Under the pieces are notes generated by a model that was given only the letters and a program-made list of their open reading frames with translations, ran no database searches and was not told the DNA's origin. A stretch of 64,000 nt of DNA from Amphiscolops sp. MND2022 (taxonomy: Eukaryota), in assembly GCA_964187785.1 (NCBI GenBank), contig OZ076416.1, forward strand, positions 3,348,001-3,412,000, given 5' to 3'. Position 1 is the first letter of the stretch. The number at the start of each line of letters is the position of its first letter. Shown one piece after another: positions 37,409 through 58,291 of the stretch. The position numbers and the translations under genes were made by a program.

Positions 37409-37418
37409 TAGACCTAGA

Positions 37419-38134
37419 TGTAACGTCAAGCTAGCAGCTACATTCCAGAACTGGGACAATGCCCAGGTTGCATTAACAAGAGACCAATGTCTTATAACAA
37501 CCTAAACATTAGTTTTTGGTCCCAAATGGTATCTGCAGGGACTTTTCCAAGACGCCGAGGAGACTCCTCATATTAGAGCTCCGTGGCGACGTGCCGGCAC
37601 ACTCAAAGTCCGGACACGTCCCACAAGCACGTAAAAACGTATCCAAAGGGTTCCTGCGGTCCTACATACCTCCGAGGTCTGAAAATAGGGTTTTAGTCAG
37701 AGTACATCTCAATTGAATGAATAACGTCTAAAATCACTAGTACAAGGATCTGGCAGATCCAACATCACCACATATCTGCAAATAGTAATCAACAACAACA
37801 TAACTAATCAAATTAGGCTTTTCCAATGCTTCTGTATTGATTTTGCTGTTTTCCTCATCTTCTTCTGATATGGGACATCTGGATCGAAGGCCGTTTCCAA
37901 TACAACATGCAGTTTTTTGGGGAGATGACACAATTTCCGCGATTTTCTTGTTTCCTCATGTCATGTGGGTGTCCTTTCTTGTCTTCTGGGCCGGGGGTGG
38001 GGTTTTTTTGTTGTGTCCGCTTCTTTTTTTTTGATTTCAACGACCTGCTAGGTCGGCCATTTTGGATTCGCACATTTTCGACTTTTTCAACGAATTTTTG
38101 GTGCTAACTGGTATGTCGATTGGTGGACGTTACA
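37419..38134 (-). repeat. A2 3' LTR (716 bp)
   Basis: TGTAACG...CGTTACA termini; differs from the 5' LTR by 2 substitutions, a 9-bp indel and a 1-bp indel (by eye). Confidence 0.95.
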
Positions 38135-38165
38135 TCCTCCCCGGGCCATTGTTTGTCGTCCTCGG
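38135..38165 (-). promoter_or_regulatory. A2 polypurine tract region
   Basis: Minus strand GAGGACGACAAACAATGGCCCGGGGAGGA directly precedes TGTAACG. Confidence 0.7.
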
Positions 38166-38606
38166 CAAACGGAGAAGGGCGTACCACTACTTACAAATGG
38201 TGTTAGCAACGTCATTTCCAGTTTTTATTTTTTTTGATCTTACTGCTTCAAAATCTCGATTTAGCACATTTTTGTCAATTAATGGACACTAAAATCAGTT
38301 ACTTTAAAACTCTTTTCATTTGTTCGACTAAGTTTAAAACTTCTTTTTCTGGGGTGGTTGCACTTCTACGACAGTTAGCCAGTAAAACAAAGAATAAGTC
38401 TCTTTTACTAAAACTTCAATTGCACTGTGTTTGAGCAAGCAGGCAGGCACCAAGTTGGGACCTACCCACTGGGTAGTTACATTCACAAAACTATGTTAGC
38501 ACTTCGTTGACTAAAATTTAGCACTTATGTTCTATAGTAGTTAAGGCTTCAGGTGTTTTGGTTAGTTTGGTTTGATTCGTGATGACATTGAAGTTCAGTT
38601 TCTATT

Positions 38607-41600
38607 TCACTTGTTGCTAGCGGCATCCATGACAGCATCCTCTTTCTGCAATACTTCATTCAGCGATACTGCTAATGCTTCTGACGATAATGGATTTTGC
38701 TGATTCAAGCCTGGCAACTCGCTGAGTTCGAGTTCGATATCAGCTGTCTGTAGCCTTGATAAGGTCACAGATGTGTCCTCCGCTGCGTCTAGTGGCATTG
38801 CTTGGTCGTTTGAGGTGGTAGTTATGATACTAGGAGTGGGCTGATTGGCTTGTCCAGGATGTGAGATGAATACATCAATGTTCGCTGCTGCGTCTGGTGT
38901 GGTGTTTGAGTGGCTTGTAATTGACATCACGGAAGTTGAACTGCCAGCGGCAGAAGTCTCCTCGTGCCCTGCTGCCTGTCCTGTCGAGGTGGAGCCCGCT
39001 GGGCGTGCTTCTGGCAGCTGGTTTGCAAGGTCCTGGCGTCCGTATTTGGTGAACATTTCCCTATAGGTCTCTATCGCATCTAGGTAACTGGTGTAGACAG
39101 AATTGCCCTCTCCTTTCTGTTTGGAAATTAGGGTCATGAAGATCTCCATGGCCATCCTTGGGTTGTTAGGCATTTCTTCACTTAGGGGCAAAGGTTTTCG
39201 ATTGGGTTCCCTGGCGATCTTTGGGACTGTTGCCTTCAATGCTTGATATTCTTGGTAGATTAATCTGTCTATTATTGGTGGATCAGCCCAATGCGTGGTT
39301 TTCGATAGAATATTGGCTGTGTCGGCTCGTGGTTCCGCTCGTGGGTTATACATCCGGGATGTGTCGATCACTACTCGGTGTTGGAGCGTCTCTGGCGTGG
39401 AGCCTTTTCTTCTTCCACCCAAACGTTGCACTGCATTGGATAGTGCTCTAAGGATTCCAGGTTCATCCCAGCCAGTGAAGTGTTGCAGGGCCCCAGTATT
39501 AGGTTCAACGGGAGCGTGCAGCCATTCCACAGGGTGAAGTTCCAAGGGCATGGGAATAGCGCACCGCGCTCTGGCTCGGATCAAGGCACCAAAGTTGTAC
39601 TCTACTTGCTTCTTGTCCTTGATTATAGTGAACGCCATTGGTGGTCGGAAGTTGGCAAAATTACGTACCAGCGCATGAAAGTCTGGCGGCCTGGCGTCGT
39701 CTTCTGGGTCTACGAAATGCAGAATTGACAGTGTGGGCGCGCTAGCGGCGACCCTAAGTGGCTGTGTGGGGTACCTCAAGGCCATTACAGAGCCGAATAT
39801 TGGCCAGATGATAGGAGCGATTAAGGGGATTAAGTCTTCAGTTTCCACCAACATTAGACTGGCAACTTGTGATGGGAATAGAAAACCTGGCAGGTTATTA
39901 TCATCGCGTCTCTGATTCAACGGGTCGTCCAAGGTGTTCATCACACCCGAGACATTGATCCAGGCCGAATAAATCCAAACTAGCATTGTCTCTACGTTTT
40001 CGGCTAACTGGGCGCGCAACTTCAAAGCGCCTGCGGGGTCCAGTGAATTCAAAATGGCGTTGATCCAATTTCTCTGGTTCCTTGCAAAGATAAGGAAGCT
40101 CAGCAGACTGGAATTAGCCTTGTCTAGGACTAGCCTTTGCACCAAGTGCACAGGGCCTTTGTAGACGGCACCTAGGCCAACGGCCATCAGGTAAGCCAAG
40201 ACTTCTGCGATTGTGGCTTGCTGCATTGCTTCTATGTATAGTTTTGTCTGCTGTTCGTCTAAACTACTCTCGCTTGATACCATGGTCGGCACCCAAAATG
40301 GTGAGATGTTGTAAAGAAATATGGGGAAGAGAATTCCATGGGTTTCCGCCACTTCCACTAGGGTCCTTTGCAATGTCTCATGCCACGACCGGTAGGAGTG
40401 CTCTGGGTTCGCACGGTTTTCTTTTGGCGTCCTTTGCGCTAACACCGCCAGCAGCACTAGGGTGGGCGAGACCATGTCGGGCTTCGAATCAAGTGCTTGG
40501 ATTGCTACTGGGAATACTGTTGCTTCTGTTCTGTTTTGCTTGATCTCTTCGGTCTTCCGGAAGAGAGCTAGCAGCTCTTTGTGGAATTTTGGTTCATGGG
40601 TTTTCTCATCCAGTGTCGATTCATCCCTTCTCTCAAACCATCCGTTGTCGATCATGTTGGTGCGTTCCTTTCCGTTCGGCTCTTTGACTTGGCGTACCCC
40701 GTTTTCGTCAAAGGTACGGTGCGCCATTTGCATTCCAAAGTCGAAGGCAGTAGCATCATCAGCAAGCATTTGAGAGTTGCCCGAGTATCCTGTATAGGCC
40801 TGCAAGGCTTTCGAGATTTCTGCTAAGAATGCAGAGTAGGAATTCTCGCATGGACGCCAGGTTGTGGCGCTTATTCTCAGGTTCGGTGCTACTATATGAA
40901 AGGATAAATTTTGGGCGTAAGCTGCCTCCGATATGAGATACAACAACTGTTGGAGTGGCCTGGGCAGATACACATATCCTGGGGGCGATACAAAGACTAC
41001 TCCCACAGCGGGCTTTTTTTGTTGTGCCCGTCTGATAACGCTCCTCATCGTTTCAATGTATGCTGTCACTTCAGCCGTCATCATTTCCCCCGTTAGGTTA
41101 CGGTTGCTATCTGCGAAGTACCTCAGAGTTCCTTGAAGAGCCAGATGGTGAAATACGTTGCTGTAGATTAATAGCGGGGGAAAAGGGATGGTTTCTGCAT
41201 GGTTGAGAGCAGGGCCAAAGACCTTGCAGGTCACCTCGGCCATTTCTTCTAGTGATGTGCAGGGCAAGTTCATTACTCGAACATCCATTAGGGTATTGTT
41301 CATGTTTGCAGTTGCCTTCATCGTAGAATCCATGAACAAGGCAATCCTCGTCTTCTGTAACATTTCCTTGCCCATGGGGAGCAAAGTCGTCACGTCCCTC
41401 ATGAAATCGCGACTCCTCATCAGCTGCTCGTCATATCTGGCTGGTCGTTGTACGGTCAGTTTCATCTTCGATGGCAATGGTTTCACCAACGACGACCTGT
41501 CTCTATGGAGATCCTCTCTTACCCTTTCAAACCATGGAGGGATGCGATCCAATAGGAGTGTCGGATTCTTTACTGGCCTCAGGTAGTGTACTCCAATGGA

Positions 41601-42956
41601 TGCTCTTTCAAGGTTCCTTACATCCTCTGGGTTTCCTTTGCTGCTGGCCGTTTCAAATTTCTGGACATCCAACCCTGAGTCTGGATTCCCTGACTTTGCT
41701 TCTCTCTGCAGACGCACAGCGTCTCTTGTGGCAATGTCATACTGCCGGGCTTCCGTCTGTGATAGGAGCTCAGAGAATCGCACTCGCCTAGCTTCCGGCT
41801 GTTGCACTGGTGAGGGGTTCGGGCTGGAGTTGGTGGCTTCGGAATTGGCCAATTCTCTTGCTCTTTTCTTTTGAACCAATTGTTCAATTTTATTCTGTTC
41901 TTTACGATTCAAGACATCTCGCAGATCAATAGGAGCCTTTGCTGCTCTTCTCTCCGTTTGCTCCTGTTCTCTTTGTTGTTCCTGTTTGTCTGGATCAACC
42001 TGAAAACCTATTAGGTGCCGTGGATCTGTTGGTGTCGTAGGCAGCAAGGCATCGTACGAGTCTGGTACTCCAATCACGTCTCTCATGATGGGTACGTCAA
42101 GCGGATTTCGCATCACGACTGTTCTTGGTTTTTGGCTGCTAGTTTCATCGGTGCCATGCGCACTAGTGCGCATTTCCTCCACCCCTTCCCCCCTGAAAGA
42201 GGAGGGGCGCATGAGTTCAGGGTCGCCCTCCGCTAGTCGTCGGACGTTGATGGAGGCGGACGGTGGGGGTGGTGTCAACACTGGTGGCGGCACTGGGGGT
42301 AGCAGGCATGTGATCTGCTGGAATGACGGTATATGTTGAGGTTGGTTATTGTGGGAACTCCGAGGAGCGGTGGGTGGTACCGTTGGATGGGTTGGTGTTG
42401 GATTCGTCTGGGGAGGTCGGAGTTGTTCCATGGGAAGCCTAGCAGGCTCATTGTACCTCATGCTGGACCTGTGGTCGTCAAAGTGGTGGGTCAGATCATG
42501 ACCGCGCCATGCACCATCGTGAAGCTCTGCTGTCCTACGGTATGAACCGATTCCAACAGATATGGACAGGGTGAAGTCTGGGTGCATCTCCAGAGACTGC
42601 ATTTGTGCAATCAGCATAGTCATCCCCGTTACCAGTGTCGGAGGGGCGCCTTCTTGAAGAGTTGATTGGACCAGACCAAGCTGGTCTACTGTGGCCTGGG
42701 CCCTATCTACAGGCAGCGAGGGCACGGGAGCTGGAAGTGTGGCTGACTGGTTTTGACTAGATTGGGAGGTGCTCGGCTGCGAGCTTGTTGTTGGAGGAGC
42801 TGGCAGGCGTGTTCTTGCTGAGTGATCCATTGTATGGATAGGTAGCACCTTAGACAAAAGATTATGTTGAGTGTACTGCAAATATGATGATATGCGGCTG
42901 GCTGTGTCAAGTGCGTAGGAATTGACAGGACTGAACTGAAAAACAACAGGCGTCAA
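38607..42956 (-). CDS. A2 ORF3, 1449 aa (first ATG at 42830), non-Env protein with an internal SGNH-like domain
   Basis: Uninterrupted 4.35-kb ORF in the env position; conserved blocks shared with A1 ORF3; IALFMDST...NLPCTSL...LLIYSN...VVFVSPPG...APNLRI..TWRP follows the SGNH block order. Confidence 0.85.
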   Translation of the reverse strand: MTPVVFQFSPVNSYALDTASRISSYLQYTQHNLLSKVLPIHTMDHSARTRLPAPPTTSSQPSTSQSSQNQSATLPAPVPSLPVDRAQATVDQLGLVQSTLQEGAPPTLVTGMTMLIAQMQSLEMHPDFTLSISVGIGSYRRTAELHDGAWRGHDLTHHFDDHRSSMRYNEPARLPMEQLRPPQTNPTPTHPTVPPTAPRSSHNNQPQHIPSFQQITCLLPPVPPPVLTPPPPSASINVRRLAEGDPELMRPSSFRGEGVEEMRTSAHGTDETSSQKPRTVVMRNPLDVPIMRDVIGVPDSYDALLPTTPTDPRHLIGFQVDPDKQEQQREQEQTERRAAKAPIDLRDVLNRKEQNKIEQLVQKKRARELANSEATNSSPNPSPVQQPEARRVRFSELLSQTEARQYDIATRDAVRLQREAKSGNPDSGLDVQKFETASSKGNPEDVRNLERASIGVHYLRPVKNPTLLLDRIPPWFERVREDLHRDRSSLVKPLPSKMKLTVQRPARYDEQLMRSRDFMRDVTTLLPMGKEMLQKTRIALFMDSTMKATANMNNTLMDVRVMNLPCTSLEEMAEVTCKVFGPALNHAETIPFPPLLIYSNVFHHLALQGTLRYFADSNRNLTGEMMTAEVTAYIETMRSVIRRAQQKKPAVGVVFVSPPGYVYLPRPLQQLLYLISEAAYAQNLSFHIVAPNLRISATTWRPCENSYSAFLAEISKALQAYTGYSGNSQMLADDATAFDFGMQMAHRTFDENGVRQVKEPNGKERTNMIDNGWFERRDESTLDEKTHEPKFHKELLALFRKTEEIKQNRTEATVFPVAIQALDSKPDMVSPTLVLLAVLAQRTPKENRANPEHSYRSWHETLQRTLVEVAETHGILFPIFLYNISPFWVPTMVSSESSLDEQQTKLYIEAMQQATIAEVLAYLMAVGLGAVYKGPVHLVQRLVLDKANSSLLSFLIFARNQRNWINAILNSLDPAGALKLRAQLAENVETMLVWIYSAWINVSGVMNTLDDPLNQRRDDNNLPGFLFPSQVASLMLVETEDLIPLIAPIIWPIFGSVMALRYPTQPLRVAASAPTLSILHFVDPEDDARPPDFHALVRNFANFRPPMAFTIIKDKKQVEYNFGALIRARARCAIPMPLELHPVEWLHAPVEPNTGALQHFTGWDEPGILRALSNAVQRLGGRRKGSTPETLQHRVVIDTSRMYNPRAEPRADTANILSKTTHWADPPIIDRLIYQEYQALKATVPKIAREPNRKPLPLSEEMPNNPRMAMEIFMTLISKQKGEGNSVYTSYLDAIETYREMFTKYGRQDLANQLPEARPAGSTSTGQAAGHEETSAAGSSTSVMSITSHSNTTPDAAANIDVFISHPGQANQPTPSIITTTSNDQAMPLDAAEDTSVTLSRLQTADIELELSELPGLNQQNPLSSEALAVSLNEVLQKEDAVMDAASNK

Positions 42957-43138
42957 TTTGGGCTAAAATAATGTTTCTGACGAGTACAATTGAGCTACAG
43001 TCAACATTAAAAAAAAACAAAGGGTTAAAATAGACTCGGTCATAGTTAAAACCCAATTCGGCGATTGACTAAAACAATACTGACACTACAAGTTATGAGT
43101 GGCTTTCATTGTAATTACCCTGAACGTGCCACTGCAAT

Positions 43139-43921
43139 TCAATCAAGCTTAGACTTTCCACAATCAAGGCGTGTCTCAATTGAAGCAATGGACACATACA
43201 CTCTGTCATGTAAGATAACGTCAATGTCGGAATCGATGAAATGGTCCCTCAACATTGAATACCAAGCTGGTAGCATGTTGATGGACCTTTCAGGGTCATA
43301 GATGGGCAAATGGATTTGGGTAGCGTGTGCCCGCACCAGCTTCTGTATTAGGTCTACTAGGCACAGATGTAGCACATCATGGAGGATGGGGTGTTTACTA
43401 GAGGCTCTTGTGATCAACAATATGATCTCGTTGTTCCATGGCGCTGTTGTTGATTTCGGGAGGCGTATGGCCTTCCCCACAGCTGGGCGTAGCCGGAAAA
43501 TTTCCTCCTGACTATATTCTCGGATGACGTAACGTGCCATTGCTGAATATGATAGCAAATCTGCTGGACAGCATATCGCCACGGTACCACGGGCTTGAAG
43601 AATGTCGGTTTCTTCGTAGGAAATCCATGATAAGTAGTTCGGCTTGAATTTGGGGTGGGTCGTCAGTAGTTTTCCCGTGACAGTGCTTTGATTGTCTTGT
43701 CTTGGCGTGAGATGATCTAGAATGGCTTTTCGATCTTGCCATACTGTCCTGCGTAAGGGTCTGTTTCCCAAATTCGTGCAAGACCAATCATGAACTACGG
43801 AAAGTGCTTCAAGCACAGTCACTGGGTTCTCGAACGTATAGGTATATTTGTCCAATAGACGTATTTTGGCTTGTCGACAGAAAGTGATAGCCAATAGCTG
43901 CAACCAGTGTTGGGTAAGGAA
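43139..43921 (-). CDS. A2 Pol C-terminal extension with TARG1/Poa1p-like macrodomain, in frame with pol after a single TAA
   Basis: WISYEETDIL...VAICCPADL...IILLITRASSKHP...IHLPIYDP...DIDVILH resembles TARG1 ITYVKGDLF...LAHCISED...IYYLITK...LSMPRIG...IKITVY; same frame as pol (GGA TAA TTC CTT). Confidence 0.7.
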   Translation of the reverse strand, partial: FLTQHWLQLLAITFCRQAKIRLLDKYTYTFENPVTVLEALSVVHDWSCTNLGNRPLRRTVWQDRKAILDHLTPRQDNQSTVTGKLLTTHPKFKPNYLSWISYEETDILQARGTVAICCPADLLSYSAMARYVIREYSQEEIFRLRPAVGKAIRLPKSTTAPWNNEIILLITRASSKHPILHDVLHLCLVDLIQKLVRAHATQIHLPIYDPERSINMLPAWYSMLRDHFIDSDIDVILHDRVYVSIASIETRLDCGKSKLD

Positions 43922-46900
43922 TTATCCGCGATAGATGTCTGCTAGGTGGAAACAAAGTGTGTCATCGAACTCCACTAATGTGCGCAAGTTCTCTAAGCAA
44001 ATCAATAGTGTTCCTGGAGTCACTGGGGATGTCTCGTCTAGAGAAGTGACTAGTAGCCACCATCCTGTCGTTGGATGATACACATCTCCAGGAGGTGAAG
44101 TCACACCGTATTGTTGCCATAGCTTCTGCGCGGTGATACAGCGTACCATTGCTACTTTCGTGTCTGTTGGTTCTATTTTTCCAAATACCATCGATGGTGG
44201 GAGTGGTGGGATGATAGTGGCTAACGTGAATTCTAGCCCACTCTTTTCGTGCCACGTCCACTCCTTGAACCGATAGATGGGACAGTCTGAGGGTGACGTT
44301 CCTTGCATAGCTTTGAGTGTGGTTTCCATCGGAGGGATCACTCCTGGTCCGACGCTCGAGTAGGTCTTTTCTATTGTTATTACGATATGGTGTACTTGTG
44401 GAATGTCCTGATCCTCAGCTTGTATGGACCGGATAGTGTGTTGTGCATGGTCCTCGAACGTGTCGGTGTCAGCCAAGGCAGGGGCAGAGGCGTCCTCTCC
44501 CCGGGCCAATCGTTGGTCCGGTGGTCTCCCTTTGATTAGGTTGATACAGCTGCAGTTACGGGAACCACAGGTTCCACACCTGTATCTAGGTGCTCTATTG
44601 CGTCGTAGCTGATAAGGTGCGGCTCGTGGGAGGTTTAATTGTTCCGCTTGTCGTTGTTCTGGTGACGTGCTTTCCGCAATGTTGGGTAGTGTCATTGCAC
44701 GTTCCAAGGTTCTAGACTGAGCTTTGGTTCTTACTCGGCCTCTTGATCTGGTATATGGTCTGCTAGTTCTTGTAAGGGCTTGACTTGACGAAGTGACACT
44801 TCCTCTTCTACGACCTGGAGGTCTTCCTCTTGGTCTTCCTGTTCTATTTGCGATTCTTCTTGATGGGGGTAATGTTTCCATACTTTGCTTGGGTTCTTGT
44901 ATTTCCCTGTCAGTTTCTTCTTGGGGTTCAACTTCTTCGGCAAGTTCTAGTCCTACCGAGCTAGCAGCTCGAGAACTGAACAGTGGGAAATTGCTCAATG
45001 TGTCGGTTAAAGCTGGATTCGATAGTAATGGTGCGGACGTTCCTGATGGTGAGGGTATCAGACTTGGTGGTGGTTCTGGCAAGACTTCTTCTTGGTCTGA
45101 GTATAACGGTTCCAAGTCATCAAGTTCGGGATAAACGACTGGTTGTTGTTCTTCTTCAATGGGTTGATTCATGGATTCTCGGTCAGAGTCAGATTCAGAC
45201 GGATATCCGAAGTGACTAAATCGTCTACGTGGGATTCCTTGTTCCAAAGCAGATTGAGTGCGCGTCTGGATCGTGCGCGGTGGGACAGGCGCGGTTGGTT
45301 CCATTTCGAAGGATGCTTCCGGCAGCTGTTCTGGAAGAAATGAGTCACGGGATATGTCTGATGTTATCTCCTCATTGCTCTCTTCCACGTACGGATCTGC
45401 AATGATGGCGACGTTCTGATCCAACCCAAAGGGTTGATGTGCTGCCCAATCCCATGGTGCTGGCACATGCTTCTTCAGACGCTCAAAATGGACTTTTTGA
45501 CCTGTATCTAGCACGTATAATCTTCCATCTTGCAACACATCCGTGACCTTGTGAGGTCCACGCCAGGCACGCAGAAGTTTACGGGTACCACCCTTGGGAA
45601 TTATATGGCAGAAAACCCAAACGGCATCACCCACGGCATGAGCTTTTGCCTTCAAATGTCTGTCGAACTTCTGTTTTTGTCGTACTTGCGCTTGATGAGT
45701 ATTTCGGCGGACAAGCTCGTGGATTTCTTGTTGTCTAGCAAGTAGGTGCTCTACGAATTCTTCTTTGGATTCGAACTCTCGCGCTGCGAATTCTGGGTAT
45801 ATAAATGAGAGCGGAATGGACTTTTCCGCGCCATGTTGGAGCATGTACGGGGAAAATCCTGTTGTTGCATGTCTGGTCGAATTGTAGGCGCCCAAGACTC
45901 CGTCTATGTGCTCATCCCAGTCAAGCATCCTGCGTGACGTATAAACTCTGAGCAAGGTAAGCAACGTTCGGTTCTGGCGTTCCACTAAACCGTTGCCTCT
46001 CGGATGAGCTGGAGTAGACGTTACCTTGGTTACTTGCGAAGCTTTCATCAATTCTTGAGCAATTTCGGCAGTGAAATTGGTGGCGTTGTCAGACTGCATT
46101 CTGGCAGGAGTGCCATGTCTTGCGAACCATTTATTTAAGATGATCTTTGCAGTCGTCTGTGCGTCGTATTCATCATGTGCGCATGGAATTGCCTCTGCAA
46201 ACTTCGTGAAATGGTCGATAATGACTAGCAGTCCATTATTTCCTGACGTTGTCTTGCATAATTTCAAATGGTCAAATTGCACCAGGTCATTAAAGTTGCT
46301 GCTGTTGATACTTTGTAGGGGGTAACAGGGATTCCCAGCGGGATGCTTCGTCTGTTGGCATGTTAAGCAATGCTTAATATGATTGACGACATCACGTTTG
46401 ATGCCTGGCCAAGTGTGGCGCTCTTGTATCCTCGCCAATACTTTGCCAACGCCTTGGTGTCCTGATTCATCATGTGCTCTGTACAAAATCTCATGCTGGT
46501 AGAGTTGGGGCATGACGATCATACACGGTCGTACGTGCATCGCGCGTTGCTGCGGAATGTAATTGACACACAAAATGTCATTTTGGTTCAAGAACAGTAG
46601 GTCTTTCTTCTGATGAAAGTATCGTTTGGCAAAATCTTGCACATCCTCGGGGAACAAAGCGTCATCCAATGGTTCGTTCTTCATGAGCTTTTTCAGCGCT
46701 AGGAGGTGAACATCTCTGTTTTTAGCTAGATGTAAATCCTTCAGACCACGGATCGTTGACTGGTGCTCATGAAGTTCACTTCCGACTAGCCTGAGGATAT
46801 CAGCCTGTTCTTGACAGTGCGTTGGCAATCTTCGCAACGCTGGGTCGCGTTTGGTGGTGTCGAGACGTGCCGCTGGCACTTTGGTTGTTACACTAAGGAT

Positions 46901-49330
46901 ACAATTTGGTCTGTTATCTTCGGTTGATGTCGGGGTGGTTTCCCACTGCACCTGTGGATACCACGGTATGGAGCTCAAGGACTGATCTGAGGTTTGATCC
47001 TCCTTTGGTGACTTCTTCAAAATGTACAGTACGGGGAGTTGTGCTCGAGCTTCAGGCGGAAGCTCCGGATGGTTTCGGATGAATTTTCCGTGTTTGTCAA
47101 TATATGGTACAGTGGGGAGTTCTTCGTAGTCTTTCTGGGACATGAAGCTGAATCCCTTGCTCACTTCTGGTAGAGCTTCCACAATCTTCTCCCGATGCAC
47201 GTAGTCATTGGTCCTCTTGCTAAGACCGTCTGCGTTTCTGTGTTGCGTGCGTGGTCTGTGGATCGTCTTGAAGTGGTACTGGTCGAGGCGCGCAATCCAG
47301 CGTCCAATCATGGCCTGATCCATTGAATACGTCTTCAGCCACGAGAGAGCCTGGTTGTCCACGCGCAGCGTGAATTCCCGACCTGCAAGGTAGGAATGAA
47401 ACTTCTCAATGAAATAGAAAACCGCATACATTTCCAGTTTCGGGGCGCCATAATTCAATTGTGTTCGAGTCAGCGATTTGCTACCATAAACGATGGGACG
47501 AAGAATGGTTTTCCCATTGTGTTCTTGTTCTTGGTGCAGTATGCCGGCTATGGCAACTGCACTGGCATCTGTATCCAAAACAAAACGTCCTTCATCGTTT
47601 GGGGCTGCCAAAGTTGTGGCGTCAGCTAGTGCCTGTTTCACTGAATCAAACGCTTCTTGATGTCTTTCTTTCCAGTGGAAGTGTTGGTTCTTCTTTAACA
47701 ACTCCTGCATAGGCTGTACTTTGGCGGCGTGAAAAGGAATGAAGTCTCGGTAGTAGTTCGCGAATCCAAGGAAGCTTTGTAGCTCTTCTCTATTTCTTGG
47801 GGGCATCCACTCTTGGATTTTGCTTACGGCGGCCGGGTCTGGCTTTATGCCTTCGACAGAGACTACTCTCCCAAGGTATTTGGTTTCAGTGCGCATGAAA
47901 TCACATTTCTCGGCTCGCATCTTGAAACCGGCCTCTCTGAGACATTCGAATACTTCTTTGATTCTTTCCAAGTGATCTTCAATAGTCTCTGTCGCGATTA
48001 CTATGTCGTCAATGTATGCCATGACAACACTTCCATGCCGTTGTTGGATTCTTTGTAGAGCTCGAGTGATGGATCGCTGAAAAGTGGCTGATGCATTGCA
48101 TAGCCCGAAGGGCATGCGTCGCCATTCAAACAGGCCAAGCTCACACGCGAAGGCGGTTTTTCTGCGATCGCGCTTTTTCAGCGGGATCTGCCAAAAGGCC
48201 CACGCTAAGTCAATGCTCGTGAAGATTTTTGCATTCCCAATTCTCGAGAGGCTTTCATCAATTCTGGGCAATGGAAATGCGTCCTTCACAGTTACATCAT
48301 TTAGCGGGCGGAAGTCACAGCAAAAGCGAAGCTCGCCTGTTTTCTTTTTTACCATGACTATGCCACTGGCCCACGGAGAATAGGAGGGTTGTATCAGTCC
48401 AAGGGCCAGCAAATTTTGCACTTCTTGATTGGCTTTCGCTGCCTTATCAGGGGACATTCGCCTTGCTCCTTCTCGGTGTGGTATAGCCTCCGGCTCTAGC
48501 TCTATCCTGTGCTTTGCAATCTTACACCTACCTATGTCAGACTTATTTTTCATGAATAGATCTTCGTACTCATTTAAAATAGTCTCTAACTTGTCTCTCG
48601 CCTCTTCCCCCCATGAAGAAAGGACGGAAGAGAGGTCAGGGCCTGGGATTGCTTTTAGCAATTGAGGATCTGTTCGCTTTCGCTTTTCACTCTCTGACAA
48701 ACCTACCTCAGACGGTTCAGTCGAAGACAAAAAGTTTTGGGCAAAGGAACTAAATTCTGAACTAGTGTCCATGTCAATGTCTTTATGCACTTGATTTACA
48801 AATTCCACTGAAAGCTTCGAATCATCACCTCTATTTTGCAAAGGAACAGAGTTCAATACAAAAGTGGTGAGCGCCGCTTTGCCAATTACAGTCTGTGCTT
48901 TAATCCTTACCCGTTCTTTGTCAGTTTGATTTCGTAGAGCTACGAAAATTATACCCTCTGCTCCCACTGAGGTTAGTGTATCTTCTGAAACAAAGACCGA
49001 CTTGGATTTCATGTTACATGAGTGGACCATTACGTTACGAAAATGAAATTCAGCAGGTTGTTGCGTGATGATTTTCGCGCGCACAATTTTCCTTTCAAAC
49101 GGACCTAGGACTACTTCTTCAGCGGAAATGACAAATGATGGTTCGTGTTCACTTACCTCATGTACGGCTTTGAAGATTCTAGGCGTTTTGGGATCTCGGA
49201 TGGTTACTTTCAATGCCGTTAGATCCACCAATACGTTGTATGTACGCAAGAAATTTCGACCCAAGAGGAAATCCTCTGAACCAATGTGATCTGCTATAAC
49301 TACAAAGTTGGTCTTCAGAGTGTATCCTCA
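43922..49330 (-). CDS. pol: A2 Pol (end of PR, dUTPase-like remnant, RT, RNase H, integrase, long C-terminal tail)
   Basis: WASGIV...DFRPLN, IDLAWAFWQ, YIDD (RT); DTDAS, KLEMYAV, VDNQ, NADGLS (RH); HDESGH...CLTC, QFDH, QSDN, VERQN (IN); WRGPHKV (GPY/F). Confidence 0.95.
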
Positions 49331-52300
49331 AGTTGAAAGCTTACGTCTTCTGCGATACCAACGGTCGTGATGCTCTTGCCATTGGCAGCGAAGAGTTCAA
49401 TGTCATATGGCGACAAGTTCAACTCATGCTGGGATGCGATTTTCTTGTACGCACTCAAAGAAAGAATTGAGACTCCCGAACCGGTGTCTATCATGCCGAA
49501 GAGTGGTATCGGCTTTTGCTGAGGAGTTCCGAATGCAACGACTAGCGAGGCTCGCTCATCTATTTGTGCTTCTCCTTGTGCATCCTGCACTCCAATGTTA
49601 TAGCAACGTAGTTCTTGCCTGCCCAAATATAGGCCTTGCGGAAAGTGTCCTTCCAGGACAACAATCGCATCGAACCTCATGTCTACACCATCAACCGTGA
49701 TCGCTATGGGGACTGGTGCGATTGTCTTGACCTTCTGTATTGGGGCTAGCTTGGTCTCATCACTTCTGGTGAAATGTGGCAAGGGTCTCGAAGCTATGGT
49801 GAGATTGGTGTTGCGACAAAGTTCTTCTTTCAATTGAGCCAATGTAAGGTTGGGTCGTGCTTTCTGCTCTGCGGACAACAACAGATGGATGGATATAAGC
49901 GTCTCCGTACAATCAGGCGCTGGGGCTTCAAGCGTCGTTAGGATCTGTTTCTCGCCGCAAGTCACAACCACTGGACGTGATGGTCCTCCTTCTTCCGAAG
50001 TCGAAATCACTCTTACCTGGTCCTCAGTATTGCGAAAGTCTGTGGAGTTTGTGACCGGGGCGTACCACGCCGCTTTTACTTGTTCTTCTGTTGCAACATT
50101 GTCAGGCATCATGCAATCAGATGCCACGTGACCTGTGTGACCACAATTGACGCAAAATGCTGATGTTCCTTGTTCCGGTAGGGTTGCGGGCATCACATCA
50201 TTATTCATGCCGCGTGGGTTCGATGGGCACACCCACTCTCCGGCTTGGTTCGTGCGACATGAGTTGACTACTTGTTGTACTGGTTTCCGTGCTCGATCCT
50301 TTAAAGGACAATCAGCTACAAAATGCGAGGGGTCTCCGCAGTTGAAACATGTTCGCTGCGGTTGTTGTCTGAAAGCCGCAGGTTGTTGTGGGAGCTGCTG
50401 GGCGATGGGCGCTTGCGGGGCCGGTGCCTGCACCTGGTTTTGTTGATTTGCCAAGACAGGCGACTGTTGTTGTTGTTGCTGGGGTGCAGGATAATTTTCC
50501 GAACGGGCTGAACCACGCATGCGCAGGTATTGTTGTACCGTGAATCGTAGGGCCTCTACCGTTGGGGGTGTGTCCACATACTGTTCTTGCGCATACATGA
50601 GTGCGAGGTTGCGCTTCAAATCGAAGCTGCGCACACCTTCGATAAATCTTTGCATGATTTCGTAGCGTCTTACCGCAACTTCCTCGTTGGGAAAACCTTG
50701 GCTGCGCAAACCTTCCAATGCATCCAGATATTGCATGTGATCCTCATCTGGAGACTGATTGCGTGTGCGGAACTGTTGTTGTATTTGGATCTTGTTAGCT
50801 CCGGTTCCAAATCTTCGTGCTAGCAGCGCGAAGACTTTTTCATCAGTATCGCGTTCCGCTTCAGATTTGTTCGTAATATAGTCCCGTGCCTCGTTTTCTA
50901 AGAATTCCACAATGGTCCATGCCTTGTCCAATGGAGTGTCTTTCGCATGGGCTTTCTGAAGATATCGCTTCATCAACATCAGCCAACCATCTACTATTCC
51001 GTCACGTGTGCCACGATACTTGGTTGGTTTGTTTTTTGTTTCTTTCGCCGCTAGCAATGGTTCCAGGCCTTTGGACATCGCTGTTGTTATCGCTTCTGCT
51101 AGCGTTTGACTATGTATGGCGTTTGGAGCGTTACCTTTGGCGGGTTCTACCACTGTTGCTGTGTTCAAATTTCTTCTTGAAGTTGCCTTCCTCTGCGTGC
51201 TCGAGGCCAACGGCCGTAGTTGATCGTTACTGTAGGAGAGTACTGGGCGTTCTGCGCCAAGCATTGATGAGGCGGCAGTTTGATATTCCGTATTTCTCGA
51301 TGCTGTCTTCATGTCACTAGGCATTTGGCCACTGGTCGCCGAATAGTAATCTCCAGTCGTTGAAGCACCTCTCGCATATGGATCGAATGAAGGAGGGCCG
51401 GAAATTTGGCAATGTTGCACTTCAGTTTGGTTAGCCGTCGAGGCATGGGTCTTCGCCGGCCTTTTTTGGTATGTAGCAGGGGGTTGCAACTTTGGTTGTT
51501 TTGTGTGATCATTTTTCATCACATTTTGGCGTTGGGCAACTTCCCGATATGTAGGCCGCTGAGTCGGGAGCGCACTTGTAGATGGGGCATCTGCAGGGTT
51601 AAGTGCCACCGGCACAGGTGAGGAACGGCTTGGTATCGTCGCTATCACGGTCTTCACCCCTAGGGTTAAGTCTTGGACCGTGGTCATAAGGTCCACCATG
51701 CGTTTATCTACATCCAGGTCTCTGCGATGCATCATCTCAGACATGTTCTTGTGACGCTCCTCTGCTAGTTGGTCTCTTTGCGCCATTATGGCTGTCATTT
51801 CTGATATTCGCTTCTCCGTCAGGTCTTTAATTGATGCCACGGGTGTTTCGATTTTGCCTTGATTGGCGCGCCCTTCCAATTTTATTTCGGTTACGTCTTT
51901 TCTCAGCTCTTCCATTTTCATTTCCAGGACTCCTGCCCGCTGGATATGGTCATTGTTTTCTTGGGCCAGTTTTACCTGGACCCGTTTCAATTGCTCCATG
52001 CTATGTCCAAAGTCTTCCTTTATGGCCTCGGTTTCTCTAATGCCTCGGGTGATTGTTGAATTAGGGGAGGCTGCGCTGCCAGCGTCAGAGTGTTGGGATG
52101 TTGCCGTGCGCTCTAGCCGCAAAACACTGGGGTCCAGCATTGGTGGTGTGGCAAAGGCATAACTTTGGTGAGTCCAATCTTTCCTGGTTTTCCGTTTTCC
52201 CAGTTGGCTTCCTGAGGGGATCATCGCGGTATCACCCAACGTGTCCCTACTGGCTTCGAATACTGGTGCAGCGGAACCCGGTGGGTCTGCACTCGTGCCC

Positions 52301-52743
52301 ACATGTGGAGTAATGTCTCCCAAAGTCATCCCCACCTTTGCATTCCCTACCCACTCGCTGATGTCCGAGCTAGTAGCTATTTCTCTATTCGAGTTTGGCC
52401 AGTCCCCGGTAGCAATCACGGAAGTGTTTAAGGGAGGCCACACGTTGGTGCGGTTCATGGGTGTCCCAATTTCAATCTCGGCGCTATCCGGTGACGCCTG
52501 CGATGAGTTTGATTGGCTTGATTGGGCGATTCGCGAATTTTGCTCAACGTTAGACAGGTTATCTGACATGACGTCGTCTAAAAACATTTCGGCGATCACA
52601 TCTGGCGATGCCATTTCAGCCTGTGTACTAAGCGTACTTAATTCCTCTATGTCTCTCGCAAATGGGTTGGTGGCATGAAAGCCGACTATCTCCCAAGATG
52701 CTTCATTCAAGGGTATCAAATACTCCCATTCGCTCAAACTCAT
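49315..52743 (-). CDS. gag: A2 Gag-protease (1142 aa), separated from pol by a 1-nt deletion inside the protease
   Basis: Capsid-like YRG...DGWL...FL...ARDY; knuckles CFNCGDPSHFVADC and CVNCGHTGHVASDC; MIDTGSG protease. Adding one G restores QLGGYTLKTNFVV...LLGRNFL in frame with pol. Confidence 0.92.
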   Translation of the reverse strand: MSLSEWEYLIPLNEASWEIVGFHATNPFARDIEELSTLSTQAEMASPDVIAEMFLDDVMSDNLSNVEQNSRIAQSSQSNSSQASPDSAEIEIGTPMNRTNVWPPLNTSVIATGDWPNSNREIATSSDISEWVGNAKVGMTLGDITPHVGTSADPPGSAAPVFEASRDTLGDTAMIPSGSQLGKRKTRKDWTHQSYAFATPPMLDPSVLRLERTATSQHSDAGSAASPNSTITRGIRETEAIKEDFGHSMEQLKRVQVKLAQENNDHIQRAGVLEMKMEELRKDVTEIKLEGRANQGKIETPVASIKDLTEKRISEMTAIMAQRDQLAEERHKNMSEMMHRRDLDVDKRMVDLMTTVQDLTLGVKTVIATIPSRSSPVPVALNPADAPSTSALPTQRPTYREVAQRQNVMKNDHTKQPKLQPPATYQKRPAKTHASTANQTEVQHCQISGPPSFDPYARGASTTGDYYSATSGQMPSDMKTASRNTEYQTAASSMLGAERPVLSYSNDQLRPLASSTQRKATSRRNLNTATVVEPAKGNAPNAIHSQTLAEAITTAMSKGLEPLLAAKETKNKPTKYRGTRDGIVDGWLMLMKRYLQKAHAKDTPLDKAWTIVEFLENEARDYITNKSEAERDTDEKVFALLARRFGTGANKIQIQQQFRTRNQSPDEDHMQYLDALEGLRSQGFPNEEVAVRRYEIMQRFIEGVRSFDLKRNLALMYAQEQYVDTPPTVEALRFTVQQYLRMRGSARSENYPAPQQQQQQSPVLANQQNQVQAPAPQAPIAQQLPQQPAAFRQQPQRTCFNCGDPSHFVADCPLKDRARKPVQQVVNSCRTNQAGEWVCPSNPRGMNNDVMPATLPEQGTSAFCVNCGHTGHVASDCMMPDNVATEEQVKAAWYAPVTNSTDFRNTEDQVRVISTSEEGGPSRPVVVTCGEKQILTTLEAPAPDCTETLISIHLLLSAEQKARPNLTLAQLKEELCRNTNLTIASRPLPHFTRSDETKLAPIQKVKTIAPVPIAITVDGVDMRFDAIVVLEGHFPQGLYLGRQELRCYNIGVQDAQGEAQIDERASLVVAFGTPQQKPIPLFGMIDTGSGVSILSLSAYKKIASQHELNLSPYDIELFAANGKSITTVGIAEDVSFQLEDTL

Positions 52744-55700
52744 TTCGCTTGCTTGATTTCTTGCTTTTTATTGAGTAAAACTTTTCTCTGGTCCTTCGCT
52801 CACTCCTTCCCTTCAACAAATGAGACTGAAGTCAACTTAAATTGGAAGTTGTGGTGTCACTCCCTCAAAAGTTCTAATTAAACTATTTTACTATTAAGTT
52901 TCTGAGTTTGTAGCTTGTGCCTGCCCTCTAGGTTCTGAGTCAAGATTAGCTGACTTTTACAAACTTCAGACTCAAGATTACATATACTAACTCGAAATTA
53001 CATGCACTAACTCAAGATTACATGTTCTGGTGCTAATCACCACTAATCAAAACAGAAAGGTTTGCTTCCCCACTAACTGGAGATAGATATTCTACAAAAG
53101 TTAGTAAATAAAGGTTTTTTGTTTTTTTTTTGATGTCCTACTTAAGGATACTAAAGCTAATTCACACTAAGCTACACTTGATCCAGCCGCAGGCTAGGCG
53201 ATTGGAATGAACAGAAAAGGTTTCGGTACGCTAGCAGAGTTTTTCGGAGATTTATTCAAGAAATCACCAGTTGGCACTCTTTGGATGTACTCTTTATTAC
53301 TCGCGCTGCCCGTCGATTGGAGAGCACAAGTGGGATTACTGCAAATAGGGAACTCGGGGATAGACCTTGGGGGTGAGTAGATGCTAGGAGACTAACAAAC
53401 AGGAGAGTTTTACTAATCTGATCATTACAAGATCAATGGAAACACAGTTCTTCACACTTTCTGGTGCTACTGTACTTGATGTACTTTGGCGAGACGCAGC
53501 GCGTCCTAAGTCTAAGTCTCGTGGGAAACTCCTAAATGCGTCCTGGTTCTCACACTATGCTTCGCATTCGAAGTATGCGTGGCTACAACTATCAGTTCGC
53601 ACTTAGGTGACTCTGGTGGCTGTTAACAGAGAAAACACGATTTTGGTGTTTTTCGCTTCTACGTCTCGTTGACAATCTTTCCACGAACCCAAGATGTTAG
53701 GGTTGGGCTAGCTCTATTCCAATTGCTTCAATAGGATGTGCTATGGGCTAGTGGTGTTGCACTAGGGTTGTTTGAGTCCTCACTTGCAACTTTACCTACA
53801 AAAGGTATGCTATTTTGTTGCAAAAATTCTCAAAATCAGCGACTTTTTCGTCAATACGCACGCCTGGAACAGGTGAAAATCACTTCTAGAGCTAGTAGCG
53901 ACCTGAAAATTTAACACGGTATACTACTGTGGCCAAATCGTGGGAAAATCACCACCAATTGCGCTAAGATTGATTGCACGTGACTTGGGGTCGCTCAACA
54001 ATGTTGTTACAAATGTCTACAATGTTGTGAAATTTACACAAGTCTGTCAAACTCGCTTTCTAGGCTTCCTAGCTTCCTGAAATTTTCTATGCGAGCGTGA
54101 ATTATGCCCACGTAACAGAAAAACAAAATAGCGGGGTGGCCAGATCAATATTCTGCAATCCGAGTTGACAAAACTATGATGTACCCTATATGTCACTCTC
54201 TGGGGTCAAAATTCACAAAATTGTCAATTTCCCCAAGTTGGACAGTAGCAAGCTGCTCAAAATGCACAAATCATCGGGATTCAGTGCCGTATGTACGAAA
54301 ATGCAAGAATTTTAGTGCTGGGGTACCTGCAAGGTATTGCACTATGCTCAACTAAAATTCAATTTTTTCGACATTTTCGGATCATTTTTGAGCAAAACTG
54401 CAGTTAAGATTTCTCGATCACTAGTAATGGTAGCGCTACGAAAATTACACCACTAACGTAACTTTTTGCGGTCTACACGATGGTGCTATCCGTTCTGGGC
54501 TACTCTTACCAGGAGAGATTTCGACCCATCTTGGGTACACTACTCCAGTGTTCCGAAAATGTCGCAAAAATAACGCGTTTTTGGCTATTTCTCGGCAACT
54601 ACTGGTTGGAATCACTCGCGGTTTTCTGCGTTTGCAACGTTATACTCTGTACTAACAGAAATAAGGCAAGCAAAACCTGGCAGGTTCCAAATAAGGTCTC
54701 TCAAAATAAACTTCAAGTTGCACCTTTGACACTCTCGGAACAGTACTGAAAATACGTATTTTCACCAAGAAATTTTTATTTCTTTGTTCTCAGACGTTCC
54801 GAATGGTTCTAATAGTAATGTTAGAAGGTGTAACAACTTTATTTAGGGTAGTGGGGTTATTTCAATTATTAGTTTTGCTGTTATAACTCTCAGGTCTATG
54901 GGGTCCTCTACTCAGGTCTATGTATATCAAAGAAATTCGATGGTTAAAGTTTCAATTTTTATTGGGGGATGTTAAAAATTGTCTTGGTAGTAGTGTTTCG
55001 TACTACCAAGCTCGGGAATAACGTTTTTGGGCTGATCTAAAAGCTTGGGAACAAATGCCCAAGGCTTCGCCCTCACCAAATTTGGTATTTTTGGCCAAAT
55101 TTGATGTTTTTTTTTAACAAAAATCGCTAAATTTCTCGATGTTTCAACTATTTAGCCCAGCAAATTTTTCTGTTCCTGACCTGGCAGGTCTGATGGAACG
55201 TTTTTCATGTATTCCCACTGGCCGTACTCTTTTCTACAAAATTTCGACTTTCAAAATCTGTAAAATCACTATTTGAGCCTTATTTTACGTTATTTTTCAG
55301 GTTTTCGCGCTCAAATTTTCAATCGACTGGTTCAAACACCCTCAGGGTATTCTTTCCAGTTAATTTTAGTGGGAATAGGCCGGGGAATATGCTTTTTGGG
55401 CTTCTAAACTAAGGAAATAAGGGATTTCACCCGATTGTCGTGGGTATACTGCAATCACGGAGGTGACGGAGGTGCGATGACGCAGGGGTTCACCTACTGT
55501 CGTCAGCTAGCTGGGGCCTTCAGTGCTCGACCTCCTGGTCCCCATACATTGCAATTAAGCTTAAACAAGGCTAGAAGACCCTTTAAAACACAATCCGGTG
55601 AAGCCGGATGGTTAATTTCGACAATCAGAAACGGTATGGAAACGGTACTCTGTAATCACACGGTTATTTCTCATTCCAGACCCCGGAAACATGCAGGAAA

Positions 55701-55846
55701 CACAGGAAAAACACTAGTACAAGGCCCACAGGGCTAGAATAAGGCAATAAAAACAATCTAGGACCCACCAGAAGAATTTCCTAGATCCGGACCTAGCAGG
55801 GCCGGAAAGCAGGAAAAACTCCAATTATGGCGAAAAGATGGAAAAT

Positions 55847-55864
55847 GTCCCTTGTGGGGCGCCA
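55847..55864 (-). promoter_or_regulatory. A2 primer-binding site, tRNA-Lys(UUU)-like
   Basis: Minus strand TGGCGCCCCACAAGGGAC matches the tRNA-Lys3 PBS TGGCGCCCGAACAGGGAC at 15/18 positions; it lies 16 nt from the LTR end. Confidence 0.75.
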
Positions 55865-55880
55865 TAAAAACTATCCTAGA

Positions 55881-56588
55881 TGTAACGTCAAGCTAGCAGC
55901 TACATTCCAGAACTGGGACAATGCCCAGGTTGCATTAACAAGAGACCAATGTCTTATAACAACCTAAACATTAGTTTTTGGTCCCAAATGGTCTCTGCAG
56001 GGACTTTTCCAAGACGCCGAGGAGACTCCTCATATTAGAGCTCCGTGGCGACGTGCCGGCACACTCAAAGTCCGGACACGTCCCACAAGCACGTAAAAAC
56101 GTATCCAAAGGGTTCCTGCGGTCCTACATACCTCCGAGGTCTGAAAATAGGGTTTTAGTCAGAGTACATCTCAATTGAATGAATAACGTCTAAAATCACT
56201 AGTACAAGGATCTGGCAGATCCAACATCACCACATATCTGCAAATAGTAATCAACAACAACATAACTAATCAAATTAGGCTTTTCCAATGCTTCTGTATT
56301 GATTTTGCTGTTTTCCTCATCTTCTTCTGATATGGGACATCTGGATCGAAGGCCGTTTCCAATACAACATGCAGTTTTTTGGGGAGATGACACAATTTTC
56401 TTGTTTCCTCATGTCATGTGGGTGTCCTTTCTTCTCTTCTGGGCCGGGGGGTGGGGTTTTTTTGTTGTGTCCGCTTCTTTTTTTTTGATTTCAACGACCT
56501 GCTAGGTCGGCCATTTTGGATTCGCACATTTTCGACTTTTTCAACGAATTTTTGGTGCTAACTGGTATGTCGATTGGTGGACGTTACA
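55881..56588 (-). repeat. A2 5' LTR (708 bp)
   Basis: Direct repeat of 37419-38134, followed on the minus strand by the PBS. Confidence 0.95.
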
Positions 56589-58291
56589 TTTCTGGTGTAA
56601 TAGCTTCTCATATACTAAGAGAATGCTTCTTTCTCTCAAGAAATGAAATATGAACTACTCAAATTTTCAGTCGGCCTGGTCAGTTAACTAATAGGCCCGA
56701 CAATTGCACTGACGTTTACTTTTCGTTAAAATCATAATTTTAAAAGCCTTTTATTTTACTTGAAAAGTTGTCGCCATTGAAACTGAAAAATAAATGATCG
56801 TGAAACTGGCGTCGTAATTCCAAAAGATTTGAGTTCGGAATTTTTAAAAACGTTTTCTAACCGAACTAGCCAAATTTCTCGAAAGTAGCCCCGAAATCGG
56901 CGCCGAAGGAGGTGTCTGAAGCAAGACGTTCGAAGAAACGAAAAAGCTATTGGATAACTTTCCGATATTCCGACACCAGCAAAAACTTTTAGTTGAAACG
57001 TTTTTTTCTGTTTTCAAAATAATTTCAATTCTTGTTTCTTAGAGTTTTTTAAGGTAGATACTAACCAAGGTACAATGTTACCCAGACGTTTTCGGCTCAT
57101 CAAAATAATCGACATGGTCACACTCGTACTGTTACTTATCTTGGTCTAATGAGATATCTGAATTAAGTCGATTAATCTGACAAATGTTTAATTTGACAAA
57201 TGTAACTGTAAATGTATTTCTGAAGCGTACAGCCACTCTTGGAAAGTGGGGAACCAGAGTTTCATTCGAAAAAAAAATAATTTTACAAAAAATTCAGCAA
57301 TCTTTCTGAAATCAATTCGTTTCAAGTTTTGTCTTCAATGCTTATTCTTTTGAATCCAGAGACGTTAAAATTGGATCGAAATTTCATGTTACCGTGTTGT
57401 TACTGAATCACGTTGTATTTTTATTTCGATGTTTTTAAATTAGTATATATTTTTTTTCAATAAAATCGCGCTAATTTTGTGACACGTTTTCGATGAAAAG
57501 TCTTATTTGAGCTGCTTTTTGGTCACCCATAGAAGTGCAGTAGACAACAGAAAATAACAAAGGAATAAAACGACAAGATGCTCTTTGGAAATGTCAGATG
57601 TGTTCATTTACTGCGAAAAAGTTCTGACTGCCGGAAAATGATGAAACTATGCTCTTCAGACGTAAACAAACTCCAATTTAATTGGAACACGTGTTTTAAA
57701 GGCACCATCAGATTTTCCAATCATGCAATTTTCAACATGACCGTTTTTGCTGTGCGACAAGGAATCAATGTCTGAAGCTCGTGAATGCAATCGATGACGT
57801 TAACAATTTGTGGTGATGTTGTTTATGAGCAAAACTTAGGAAATCCGTGAATCGAAGTTTCAAATTGCGGCATTCTTCCTATGACCGCAGCAGATTTTTG
57901 GGCCTGAATACTTAGTTGTGTTTTTGTTATATATTACAATATTTTCGAACACGACAGAACAGAACAGAACAGAACAGAACAGTTAATTCGATTGGATATA
58001 CATGACACATAAAAACAAGATGACTTTCATATGAATGTAACTAGAACGTATCCAATCAGGACACTAAAAGAGCAGACTTCTCGTCAAGTCCCAGCCCTTA
58101 GAAACCGATAAGTTGATGAATAAGGTAGAAGCAACTATTTTTTTCTACAGAAAACAGATCAAAGATTTTGGCATGATCTTTCTCATATCGAATATTATTT
58201 CCATACTCAAAAAAACAATCATAATACCTCTCTATTGTCACGTTTTTACACACGATTTTCAAACTCTGGCAACGGCACTCAAAGTTTTGAC
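56589..58291. repeat. Right copy of the 1703-bp host duplication
   Basis: Starts TTTCTGGTGTAATAG immediately after the LTR CA and ends AAAGTTTTGAC, as does 35706-37408. Confidence 0.95.

Follow-up and report, generated by a model that had tools for sequence, protein, structure and literature searches.

An apparently undescribed Ty3/Gypsy lineage with 3-bp target duplications, a distant primer site and macrodomain and SGNH-fold segments

The window analysed here is a 64-kb stretch (C8:3348001-3412000, contig OZ076416.1) of the 1.07-Gb genome of Amphiscolops sp. MND2022. It contains a long terminal repeat (LTR) retrotransposon of 19,170 bp on the minus strand, running from 56588 down to 37419, and both ends are exact. 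The copy is damaged and belongs to an abundant Ty3/Gypsy lineage that has moved recently and whose elements are 15-19 kb long. Our preferred reading, to which we give a probability of about 70%, is a mobile Gypsy lineage with a 3-bp target site duplication (TSD), a distant primer site and an integrase that would trim a long tail. Its macrodomain and SGNH-fold segments would serve as non-enzymatic binding modules. The features are listed below (PR*, protease-like segment upstream of the protease; macro1 and macro2, the two macrodomain segments; ORF, open reading frame).

55881-56588 (-): 5' LTR, 708 bp, terminal letters TGTAACGTC / GACGTTACA
55865-55880 (-): spacer from LTR end to primer site, 16 nucleotides (nt); T-run with an 8-nt complement about 100 nt upstream inside the LTR
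55847-55864 (-): primer-binding site, 18-nt complement of the host tRNA-Lys(TTT) 3' end plus CCA
52744-55846 (-): 5' leader, 3.1 kb, no ORF of 150 codons
49315-52767 (-): ORF piece 1; long Gag, PR*-like segment, first half of the protease
near 50500-51021 (-): capsid-like part of Gag, in ORF piece 1
50308-50349 and 50113-50154 (-): zinc knuckles of Gag, in ORF piece 1
49591-49977 (-): PR*-like segment, inside ORF piece 1
49477-49488 (-): protease DTGS; frame change near 49327-49330
43922-49327 (-): ORF piece 2; rest of the protease, reverse transcriptase (RT), RNase H, integrase with H2C2 and D-D-E intact, and a dUTPase-like segment (by eye; weak Pfam hint in one relative); in-frame stop at its end
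48005-48016 (-): YIDD of the RT
44816-44839 (-): AT-hook-like motif, in ORF piece 2
44546-44578 (-): CxxC-CxC motif, in ORF piece 2
from about 44150 into ORF piece 3 (-): probable degenerate macro1
43139-43921 (-): ORF piece 3; end of macro1 and a TARG1/OARD1-like macrodomain (about 43190-43624) with degenerate binding loops
42936-42948 (-): likely splice acceptor (AG behind a pyrimidine run), shortly before the ORF3 start
38607-42962 (-): ORF3, ATG at 42830; 1,407 amino acids (aa), 1,451 codons stop to stop; disordered N-terminal part, SGNH fold at about 40776-41429 with Arg in place of the block V His, helical domain at about 39948-40466, acidic tail
38135-38147 (-): polypurine tract, adjoining the 3' LTR
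37419-38134 (-): 3' LTR, 716 bp
37409-37418 (-): aberrant right junction; the first 6 spacer nt and 4 additional nt follow the LTR end
35705-37408 (unstranded): flank duplication copy 1, 1.7 kb, 99.5% identical to copy 2, in place of a 3-bp duplication
56588-58291 (unstranded): flank duplication copy 2, starting exactly at the left junction
9003-15670, approximate (+): A1, broken 3' fragment of a divergent family, with macro2 (9126-9625), ORF3 remnants, polypurine tract and LTR (14938-15670)

The LTRs of the window element differ from each other by 2 mismatches and 2 gaps. Its coding part falls into four stop-to-stop frames of 1,150, 1,801, 260 and 1,451 codons. Compared with an open natural copy, it shifts frame at about 49327-49330, inside the protease, and is interrupted by one stop codon at 43922-43924. 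An earlier, sequence-only reading had held that repair of two lesions would give a single polyprotein of about 3,200 aa, followed by a second very large ORF in a 19-kb element. Natural copies agree with it. They read as 3,100-3,200 aa without a break, and their ORF3 has about 1,430 aa. Six of 20 fetched elements contain an open frame of 3,111-3,219 codons that spans both lesion positions. By hand count, about 55 of 147 RT matches sit in open frames of at least 2,998 codons. A programmed frameshift at the protease break was ruled out because natural copies are open at the same place.

The ORF3 core retrieved 3,037 first-look candidates genome-wide, and all 150 that were scored were strong. The A1 version of the query retrieved 3,047 candidates and additional families. 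These roughly 3,000 loci are candidates and not copy numbers. Among the 20 elements fetched around ORF3 matches, the macrodomain region was present in 20 and the RT in 19, and 13 had an ORF3 frame of 1,427-1,451 codons (stop to stop) near the expected place. LTR pairs of fetched elements were mostly 98-100% identical. The genome contains two main groups, with about 72-75% identity in the RT and about 30% in ORF3.

A1 had been described as a relative with the same macrodomain-ORF3-polypurine tract-LTR order and with an unalignable LTR and unalignable UTRs. Both points were borne out, for what is only a broken 3' fragment. Its protein identity to the window element is 39% and 31%, and its DNA gives no alignment to that element (best E 0.38). 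A1 is 72% identical in DNA to loci L063/L064.

One copy (L147/L174) joins a 5' part of the window family to a 3' end of the type of family G (described below), is likely recombinant and has a 4-bp duplication. Three of 60 LTR loci (L080, L088 and L107) are tandem dimers with one common internal LTR, in the order polypurine tract-LTR-spacer-primer site. Between L035/L041 and L049, silent divergence (pS) is 0.10 in the RT and 0.4-0.7 in gag, integrase and ORF3. This suggests recent recombination across the RT between their families.

The target duplication was 3 bp in 43 of 49 scored insertions, across several families. Mismatched flanks gave a 3-bp duplication in 2.9%, which is the chance level. 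Eight loci were left unscored, with one end missing, mutated or from an interrupted copy. The second, unrelated Gypsy element of the window (15671-32390) has a 5-bp duplication, so the 3-bp TSD is not a property of the genome. Papers cited here and below by accession are drawn on for excerpts. In these, retroviral target duplications are 4-6 bp (PMC9410886, PMC5041404), and a Repbase-based paper calls LTR-element termini by 4-6-bp TSDs (PMC10886601). The 4-6-bp duplication usual for Ty3/Gypsy elements, which is not a formal definition, is not what this lineage makes. Among titles and abstract openings in the literature on 3-bp TSDs and Gypsy, no such LTR family was found.

A primer site usually lies a few nucleotides from the LTR. 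Here it lies 15-16 nt away in all 39 correctly read 5' LTRs; one other copy has a longer T-run. The primer sites are 18-nt complements of genomic tRNAs, Lys(TTT) in the window's group and Arg(TCG) in others. Self-priming was set aside because of these 18-nt matches. In 10 of 12 copies, a stretch 99-101 nt upstream is complementary to 8-9 nt of the spacer, with letters that differ between the two groups. Shuffled sequences reached this pattern in 0-4 of 3,000. Spacer letters also occur at two 3' ends, those of the window copy (6 nt) and of L073 (all 16 nt plus 2). Given the 3-bp TSD and the primer site 15-16 nt off the LTR, the two integrase cuts are likely staggered by 3 bases, and the enzyme would need to remove a 15-16-nt tail from one end.

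The primer tRNAs occur in large tandem arrays, on C7 near 5.22-5.26 Mb and on C9 near 57.54-57.58 Mb. There were 644 3'-end matches for Lys(TTT) and 270 for Arg(TCG), and some array units read the anticodon TCA.

The polyprotein had been read as containing a PR*-PR pair, an AT-hook and a C-terminal macrodomain. The macrodomain stands, and it is TARG1-like by profile match. The last domain of an outside relative (P0089), used alone, matches human TARG1/OARD1 (C6orf130) at E 9e-7. A 14-row profile that includes the window domain matches TARG1 at E 4e-11 with the whole domain covered; the integrase matches in that search are due to flanking sequence in the longer rows. Macrodomain binding and catalysis involve glycine loops and the Asp of a GCGLD motif. 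All of these are substituted in every family of this genome, and P0089 retains the Asp. The segment ahead of the TARG1-like domain resembles that domain weakly (E 0.025), so a tandem doubling is only probable. To judge from these residues, the macrodomains are likely disabled enzymes and probably act as non-enzymatic binding modules.

The other two parts of that description fared less well. The PR* segment has a profile match to protease (E 0.001, probability 21%), a weak one that covers 39 columns; weak protease-like matches also lie upstream of the protease in four outside relatives. The AT-hook-like motif is present in the window copy and absent in both outside relatives checked. A Pfam scan of the window element at E 0.1 found zinc knuckles, RT, RNase H and integrase, and no family in the macrodomain part (ORF piece 3) or in ORF3. 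Rfam gave no family anywhere in the 64-kb window. Profile searches of solved structures from the first small alignments did not show the macrodomain and SGNH links. Pentatricopeptide repeat (PPR) matches from an early profile search were rejected as repeat-sum artefacts, as no single stretch passes alone.

The ORF3 model from 146 rows had a mean predicted local distance difference test (pLDDT) score of 74; the single-sequence model (pLDDT 34) was unusable. Its first 230 residues resemble SGNH hydrolases (best Z 11.7, root mean square deviation 3.5, 175 aligned). SGNH-fold proteins fill the structural match list, in which the OSK domain of Oskar has Z 8.4 at rank 47. Foldseek placed the same families on top and the ZfL2-1 retrotransposon esterase at rank 50, with no PDB match at E 0.001. 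The catalytic His of block V is Arg in 37 of 44 rows, and the Gly of block II is kept in 1 of 45. Ser is retained in 33 of 36 rows and Asn in 40 of 45. A conserved Asp (41/46)-His (44/45) pair follows the Asn/block III.

A sister lineage outside this genome has ORFs of up to 2,951 aa that encode an intact GDS/GxND/DGIH esterase and then a degenerate domain of the ORF3 type. Intact S, G, N and H occur only in the first domain of that lineage. Each of 8 full sister ORFs has a second domain that matches the SGNH domain of ORF3 (E 1e-16 to 1e-18), and the helical domain matches its homologue at E 3e-6 to 2e-3. The sister ORFs are tied to the sister RT via fused ORFs such as P0102. Because the sister lineage has an intact and degenerate pair, the window's ORF3 has likely retained the disabled member. 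In two sister-lineage elements (P0346 and P0414), an extra ORF of 2,400-2,950 aa stands beside a 2,900-aa polyprotein, and these elements would be larger than the window element. Pfam gave no family in the long C-terminal half of this extra ORF.

ORF3 is not a canonical envelope by its predicted sequence features. It has no hydrophobic N-terminus, no internal furin-type site and 5 Cys, and its one segment at Kyte-Doolittle about 2.1 is away from the C-terminus, where an anchor would lie. All 8 aligned copies, which come from several families, have a T-run plus AG at the position of the likely ORF3 acceptor. As with env, splicing likely yields the RNA for ORF3.

The ratio of nonsynonymous to synonymous divergence (dN/dS) between natural open copies was 0.03-0.04 for PR*, 0.07-0.11 for the macrodomain segments and 0.05-0.07 for the SGNH and helical domains. 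All of these domains are under strong purifying selection. Co-occurrence was scored at 20 RT-anchored loci (12 without an ORF3 partner; 8 from the family with 2,998-3,134-codon frames). Both macrodomain segments were present in 19 of 20, the exception being an interrupted copy, and the macrodomain is therefore a lineage trait. The SGNH domain was at least partial in 8 and missing in 12, including all 8 loci of family G. On the question of whether the modules are merely sporadic among relatives, the macrodomain thus supports the earlier reading, and the lack of ORF3 in family G counts partly against it.

Family G contains at least 53 copies of 14.8-15.1 kb, with LTR pairs 99.9-100% identical. 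It nests within the ORF3-bearing group. In its loci (L152-L159), other sequence of about 650 bp takes the place of ORF3 (about 3100-3800 in element orientation). The likely splice acceptor is still there, and all 8 copies contain a short ORF of about 49 codons. Selection acts on ORF3, which is ancestral yet dispensable in cis.

The lineage also occurs outside this genome. The best matches of P0011 and P0102 here are just 30-34% and 25-34% identical, and these two therefore come from other organisms. P0089 (RT identity 55-58%) has the same polyprotein with two C-terminal macrodomain-like parts, and P0282 and its kin have one. An ORF3 profile search of 1.84 billion representatives gave 673 matches at E 0.001. 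Among the 150 listed, most are fragments, and some are just 25-35% identical to any compared sequence. The dN/dS values and these outside relatives uphold the earlier view that the architecture is old and selected.

A 20-row tree of the RT and RNase H places the lineage on one side of a 100/100 branch from five fish RTs, which are the nearest named RTs (about 38% identity). It omits the window's second Gypsy element and compares unnamed relatives and these fish RTs, with no reference clades; an earlier 39-row tree was a quick tree with a long-branch warning. The five fish relatives gave no macrodomain, PR* or SGNH match. The window element is a Ty3/Gypsy element by domain order, with LTRs, primer site, polypurine tract and protease-RT-RNase H-integrase. 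It had also been called giant. The internal region is 17.7 kb, which falls short of the 20-kb bar for that label in the excerpts of PMC6431247. The sequence-only reading did not mention the SGNH fold of ORF3, the 3-bp TSD, the gap of 15-16 nt ahead of the primer site or the 1.7-kb duplication.

We propose the following mechanism. A host tRNA, Lys-TTT here and Arg-TCG in other families, would prime on an RNA whose spacer is paired back into U5. The spacer would be copied into the right cDNA end and normally be removed by the integrase. Where trimming failed, one end may have been joined by host repair, which would give the 1.7-kb duplication at the window copy. The macrodomains lie at the integrase C-terminus, the position of the chromodomain in chromoviruses. 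That they tether or shield the integration complex is a tentative assignment, held at a little under even odds. We are equally guarded about ORF3 as a particle or RNA trafficking factor that is supplied in trans or dispensable. The broadest version is rather doubtful as a whole. It is an undescribed invertebrate Gypsy clade whose integrase would depart from retroviral-type integration in two ways, by staggering its cuts by 3 bp and by taking off 15-16 nt where about 2 nt is usual, in which protease, TARG1 macrodomain and SGNH esterase were each duplicated and disabled, and in which an Oskar-like RNA-binding ORF3 is shared in trans with ORF3-less families.

Several results weigh against our preferred reading. 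The PR* (E 0.001) and macro1 (E 0.025) matches are weak, and dS is close to saturation in several of the dN/dS comparisons. ORF3 is absent from the young family G in 8 of 8 loci and so is not needed in cis. The duplication was 4 bp in 2 of 49 insertions, 5 bp in 1 and absent in 3. The spacer-U5 pairing is missing from the predicted fold in 5 of 12 copies (F families). Tandem copies could have left the spacer letters at the two 3' ends, as 3 of 60 LTR loci have a shared internal LTR. The conserved Ser, Asn and Asp-His of ORF3 could form a rewired active site.

This last point is the core of the main rival for ORF3, an active lipase/esterase with a rewired triad (Ser plus the Asp-His after block III) that would help particles cross membranes, as proposed for Vesta. 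Near-invariant Ser, Asn, Asp and His speak for it, as do the env-like position with a likely splice acceptor and the GDSL precedent (PMC5408684, in part). The canonical His and the oxyanion Gly are lost, however, and the window copy has His at the Asp position. The sister lineage has a separate intact esterase alongside, and the ORF3 domain looks like a relieved duplicate. We regard an active enzyme as unlikely, at odds well short of one in three. Far less probable is an unrecognised envelope-like entry protein, which would make the lineage an infectious invertebrate retrovirus. A third ORF of 1,400 aa in env position, under strong selection and with a helical domain of no assigned fold, fits that account. 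The missing envelope features given above do not, and neither do the viral fold matches, which are to SGNH and lipase domains of phages and not to fusion proteins.

The 1.7-kb duplication may have arisen after insertion, by local tandem duplication or assembly error, and not by one-ended integration. It is a single case, with just these two full copies in the genome, and no duplication was seen in the compared flanks of L073, whose 3' end also has spacer letters. Yet the duplicate begins exactly at the left junction, spacer letters remain at the right end, and the divergence between the copies (0.5%) is similar to that of the LTRs. One-ended HIV integration yields the same kind of large duplication (PMC5041404, in part). 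A later origin is therefore rather improbable in our view. We also think it unlikely that the lineage is already catalogued in Repbase, Dfam or a genome supplement with its traits known there. Its modules have precedents in rotifer LTR elements with a GDSL ORF3 (PMC5408684), macrodomain ORFs in fish endogenous retroviruses (PMC4977317) and very large planarian Gypsy elements (PMC6431247), all seen in excerpt. Against this, full-text literature gave no such family, and the excerpted Repbase-based paper assumes 4-6-bp TSDs (PMC10886601). A term search of PMC6338049, PMC6238403, PMC13524379 and bioRxiv 10.1101/2021.11.30.470311 gave no retrotransposon macrodomain. Two acoel genome papers report LTR content in bulk only. 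The literature, as distinct from the curated libraries Repbase, Dfam and GyDB and from paper supplements, held no family with this module combination or the 3-bp signature. Compared with published accounts, and not with Repbase, Dfam or GyDB entries, the lineage and its 3-bp signature seem to be undescribed.

Intasome geometry fixes the distance between the two integrase cuts, for which 4-6 bp is the published figure. If this lineage does have a highly active natural integrase that works at 3 bp and tolerates a long unprocessed end, it would put those geometric limits to a direct structural test. Annotation that insists on TSDs of 4-6 bp and on a primer site next to the LTR would miss members of the lineage (about 3,000 candidate loci here). 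The selected yet apparently dead macrodomain and esterase domains hint at unrecognised host-element interactions, and the ORF3-less family G is a natural control for the role of ORF3.

The rest of the window contains other insertions. The second Gypsy element (15671-32390, minus strand) has 1.8-kb LTRs that are 99.7% identical, and its 5-bp duplication, TTACA, coincides with the very end of the A1 LTR. It contains a 327-codon ORF of unassigned kind near its 3' LTR (17447-18430). Nested inside it is an insertion at 19832-23911 (+) that has three ORFs (485, 190 and 320 codons). A CxxC...H..H motif in the 485-codon ORF is BED-finger-like by eye, with no Pfam match. A 40-bp tandem array in this insertion (22190-22583) has words in common with the LTR of the host element. 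A single 294-aa ORF with a hydrophobic N-terminus and no Pfam match lies at 33332-34216 (+) and is probably a host gene.

Among known systems, the lineage is like Ty3/Gypsy elements (Metaviridae) in its TG..CA LTRs, tRNA primer site, polypurine tract, gag-protease-RT-RNase H-integrase order and D-D-E integrase. Ty3 Gag-Pol is the top integrase match among solved structures. It differs in the 3-bp TSD, the primer site 15-16 nt off the LTR and a polyprotein of 3,000-3,200 aa with PR*-like and macrodomain segments. Burro (GYPSM1) of planarians and Ogre of plants resemble it in being very large and of Gypsy type, with additional domains and ORFs (PMC6431247, in part). Burro has a 4,873-aa ORF with MATH, BIR, ankyrin, BCL2-like and env parts, and internal regions of such elements reach up to 25 kb (same excerpts). 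The Pfam scan at E 0.1 found no MATH, BIR, ankyrin, BCL2-like or in-frame env domain in the window element.

The OSK domain of Drosophila Oskar is not known to be catalytic. It shares the SGNH-like fold with ORF3 and is reported to bind RNA. It ranks below true esterases in the structural matches, and it serves as an analogy for a dead SGNH domain with no kinship claimed. RNA binding by OSK is reported in a title cited in PMC7250577. The Vesta LTR elements of bdelloid rotifers have an SGNH/GDSL domain in the third ORF, in env position, which was proposed to help particles cross membranes (PMC5408684, in part). The terms macro and target site are absent from PMC5408684. The S, G, N and H of Vesta are intact, whereas the ORF3 of this lineage is without His and Gly and has its domain inside a 1,400-aa protein. 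TARG1/OARD1 matches the macrodomain over its whole length by profile. The domain in the families of this genome differs in being fused behind the integrase, in being probably doubled and in having lost its glycine loops and Asp.

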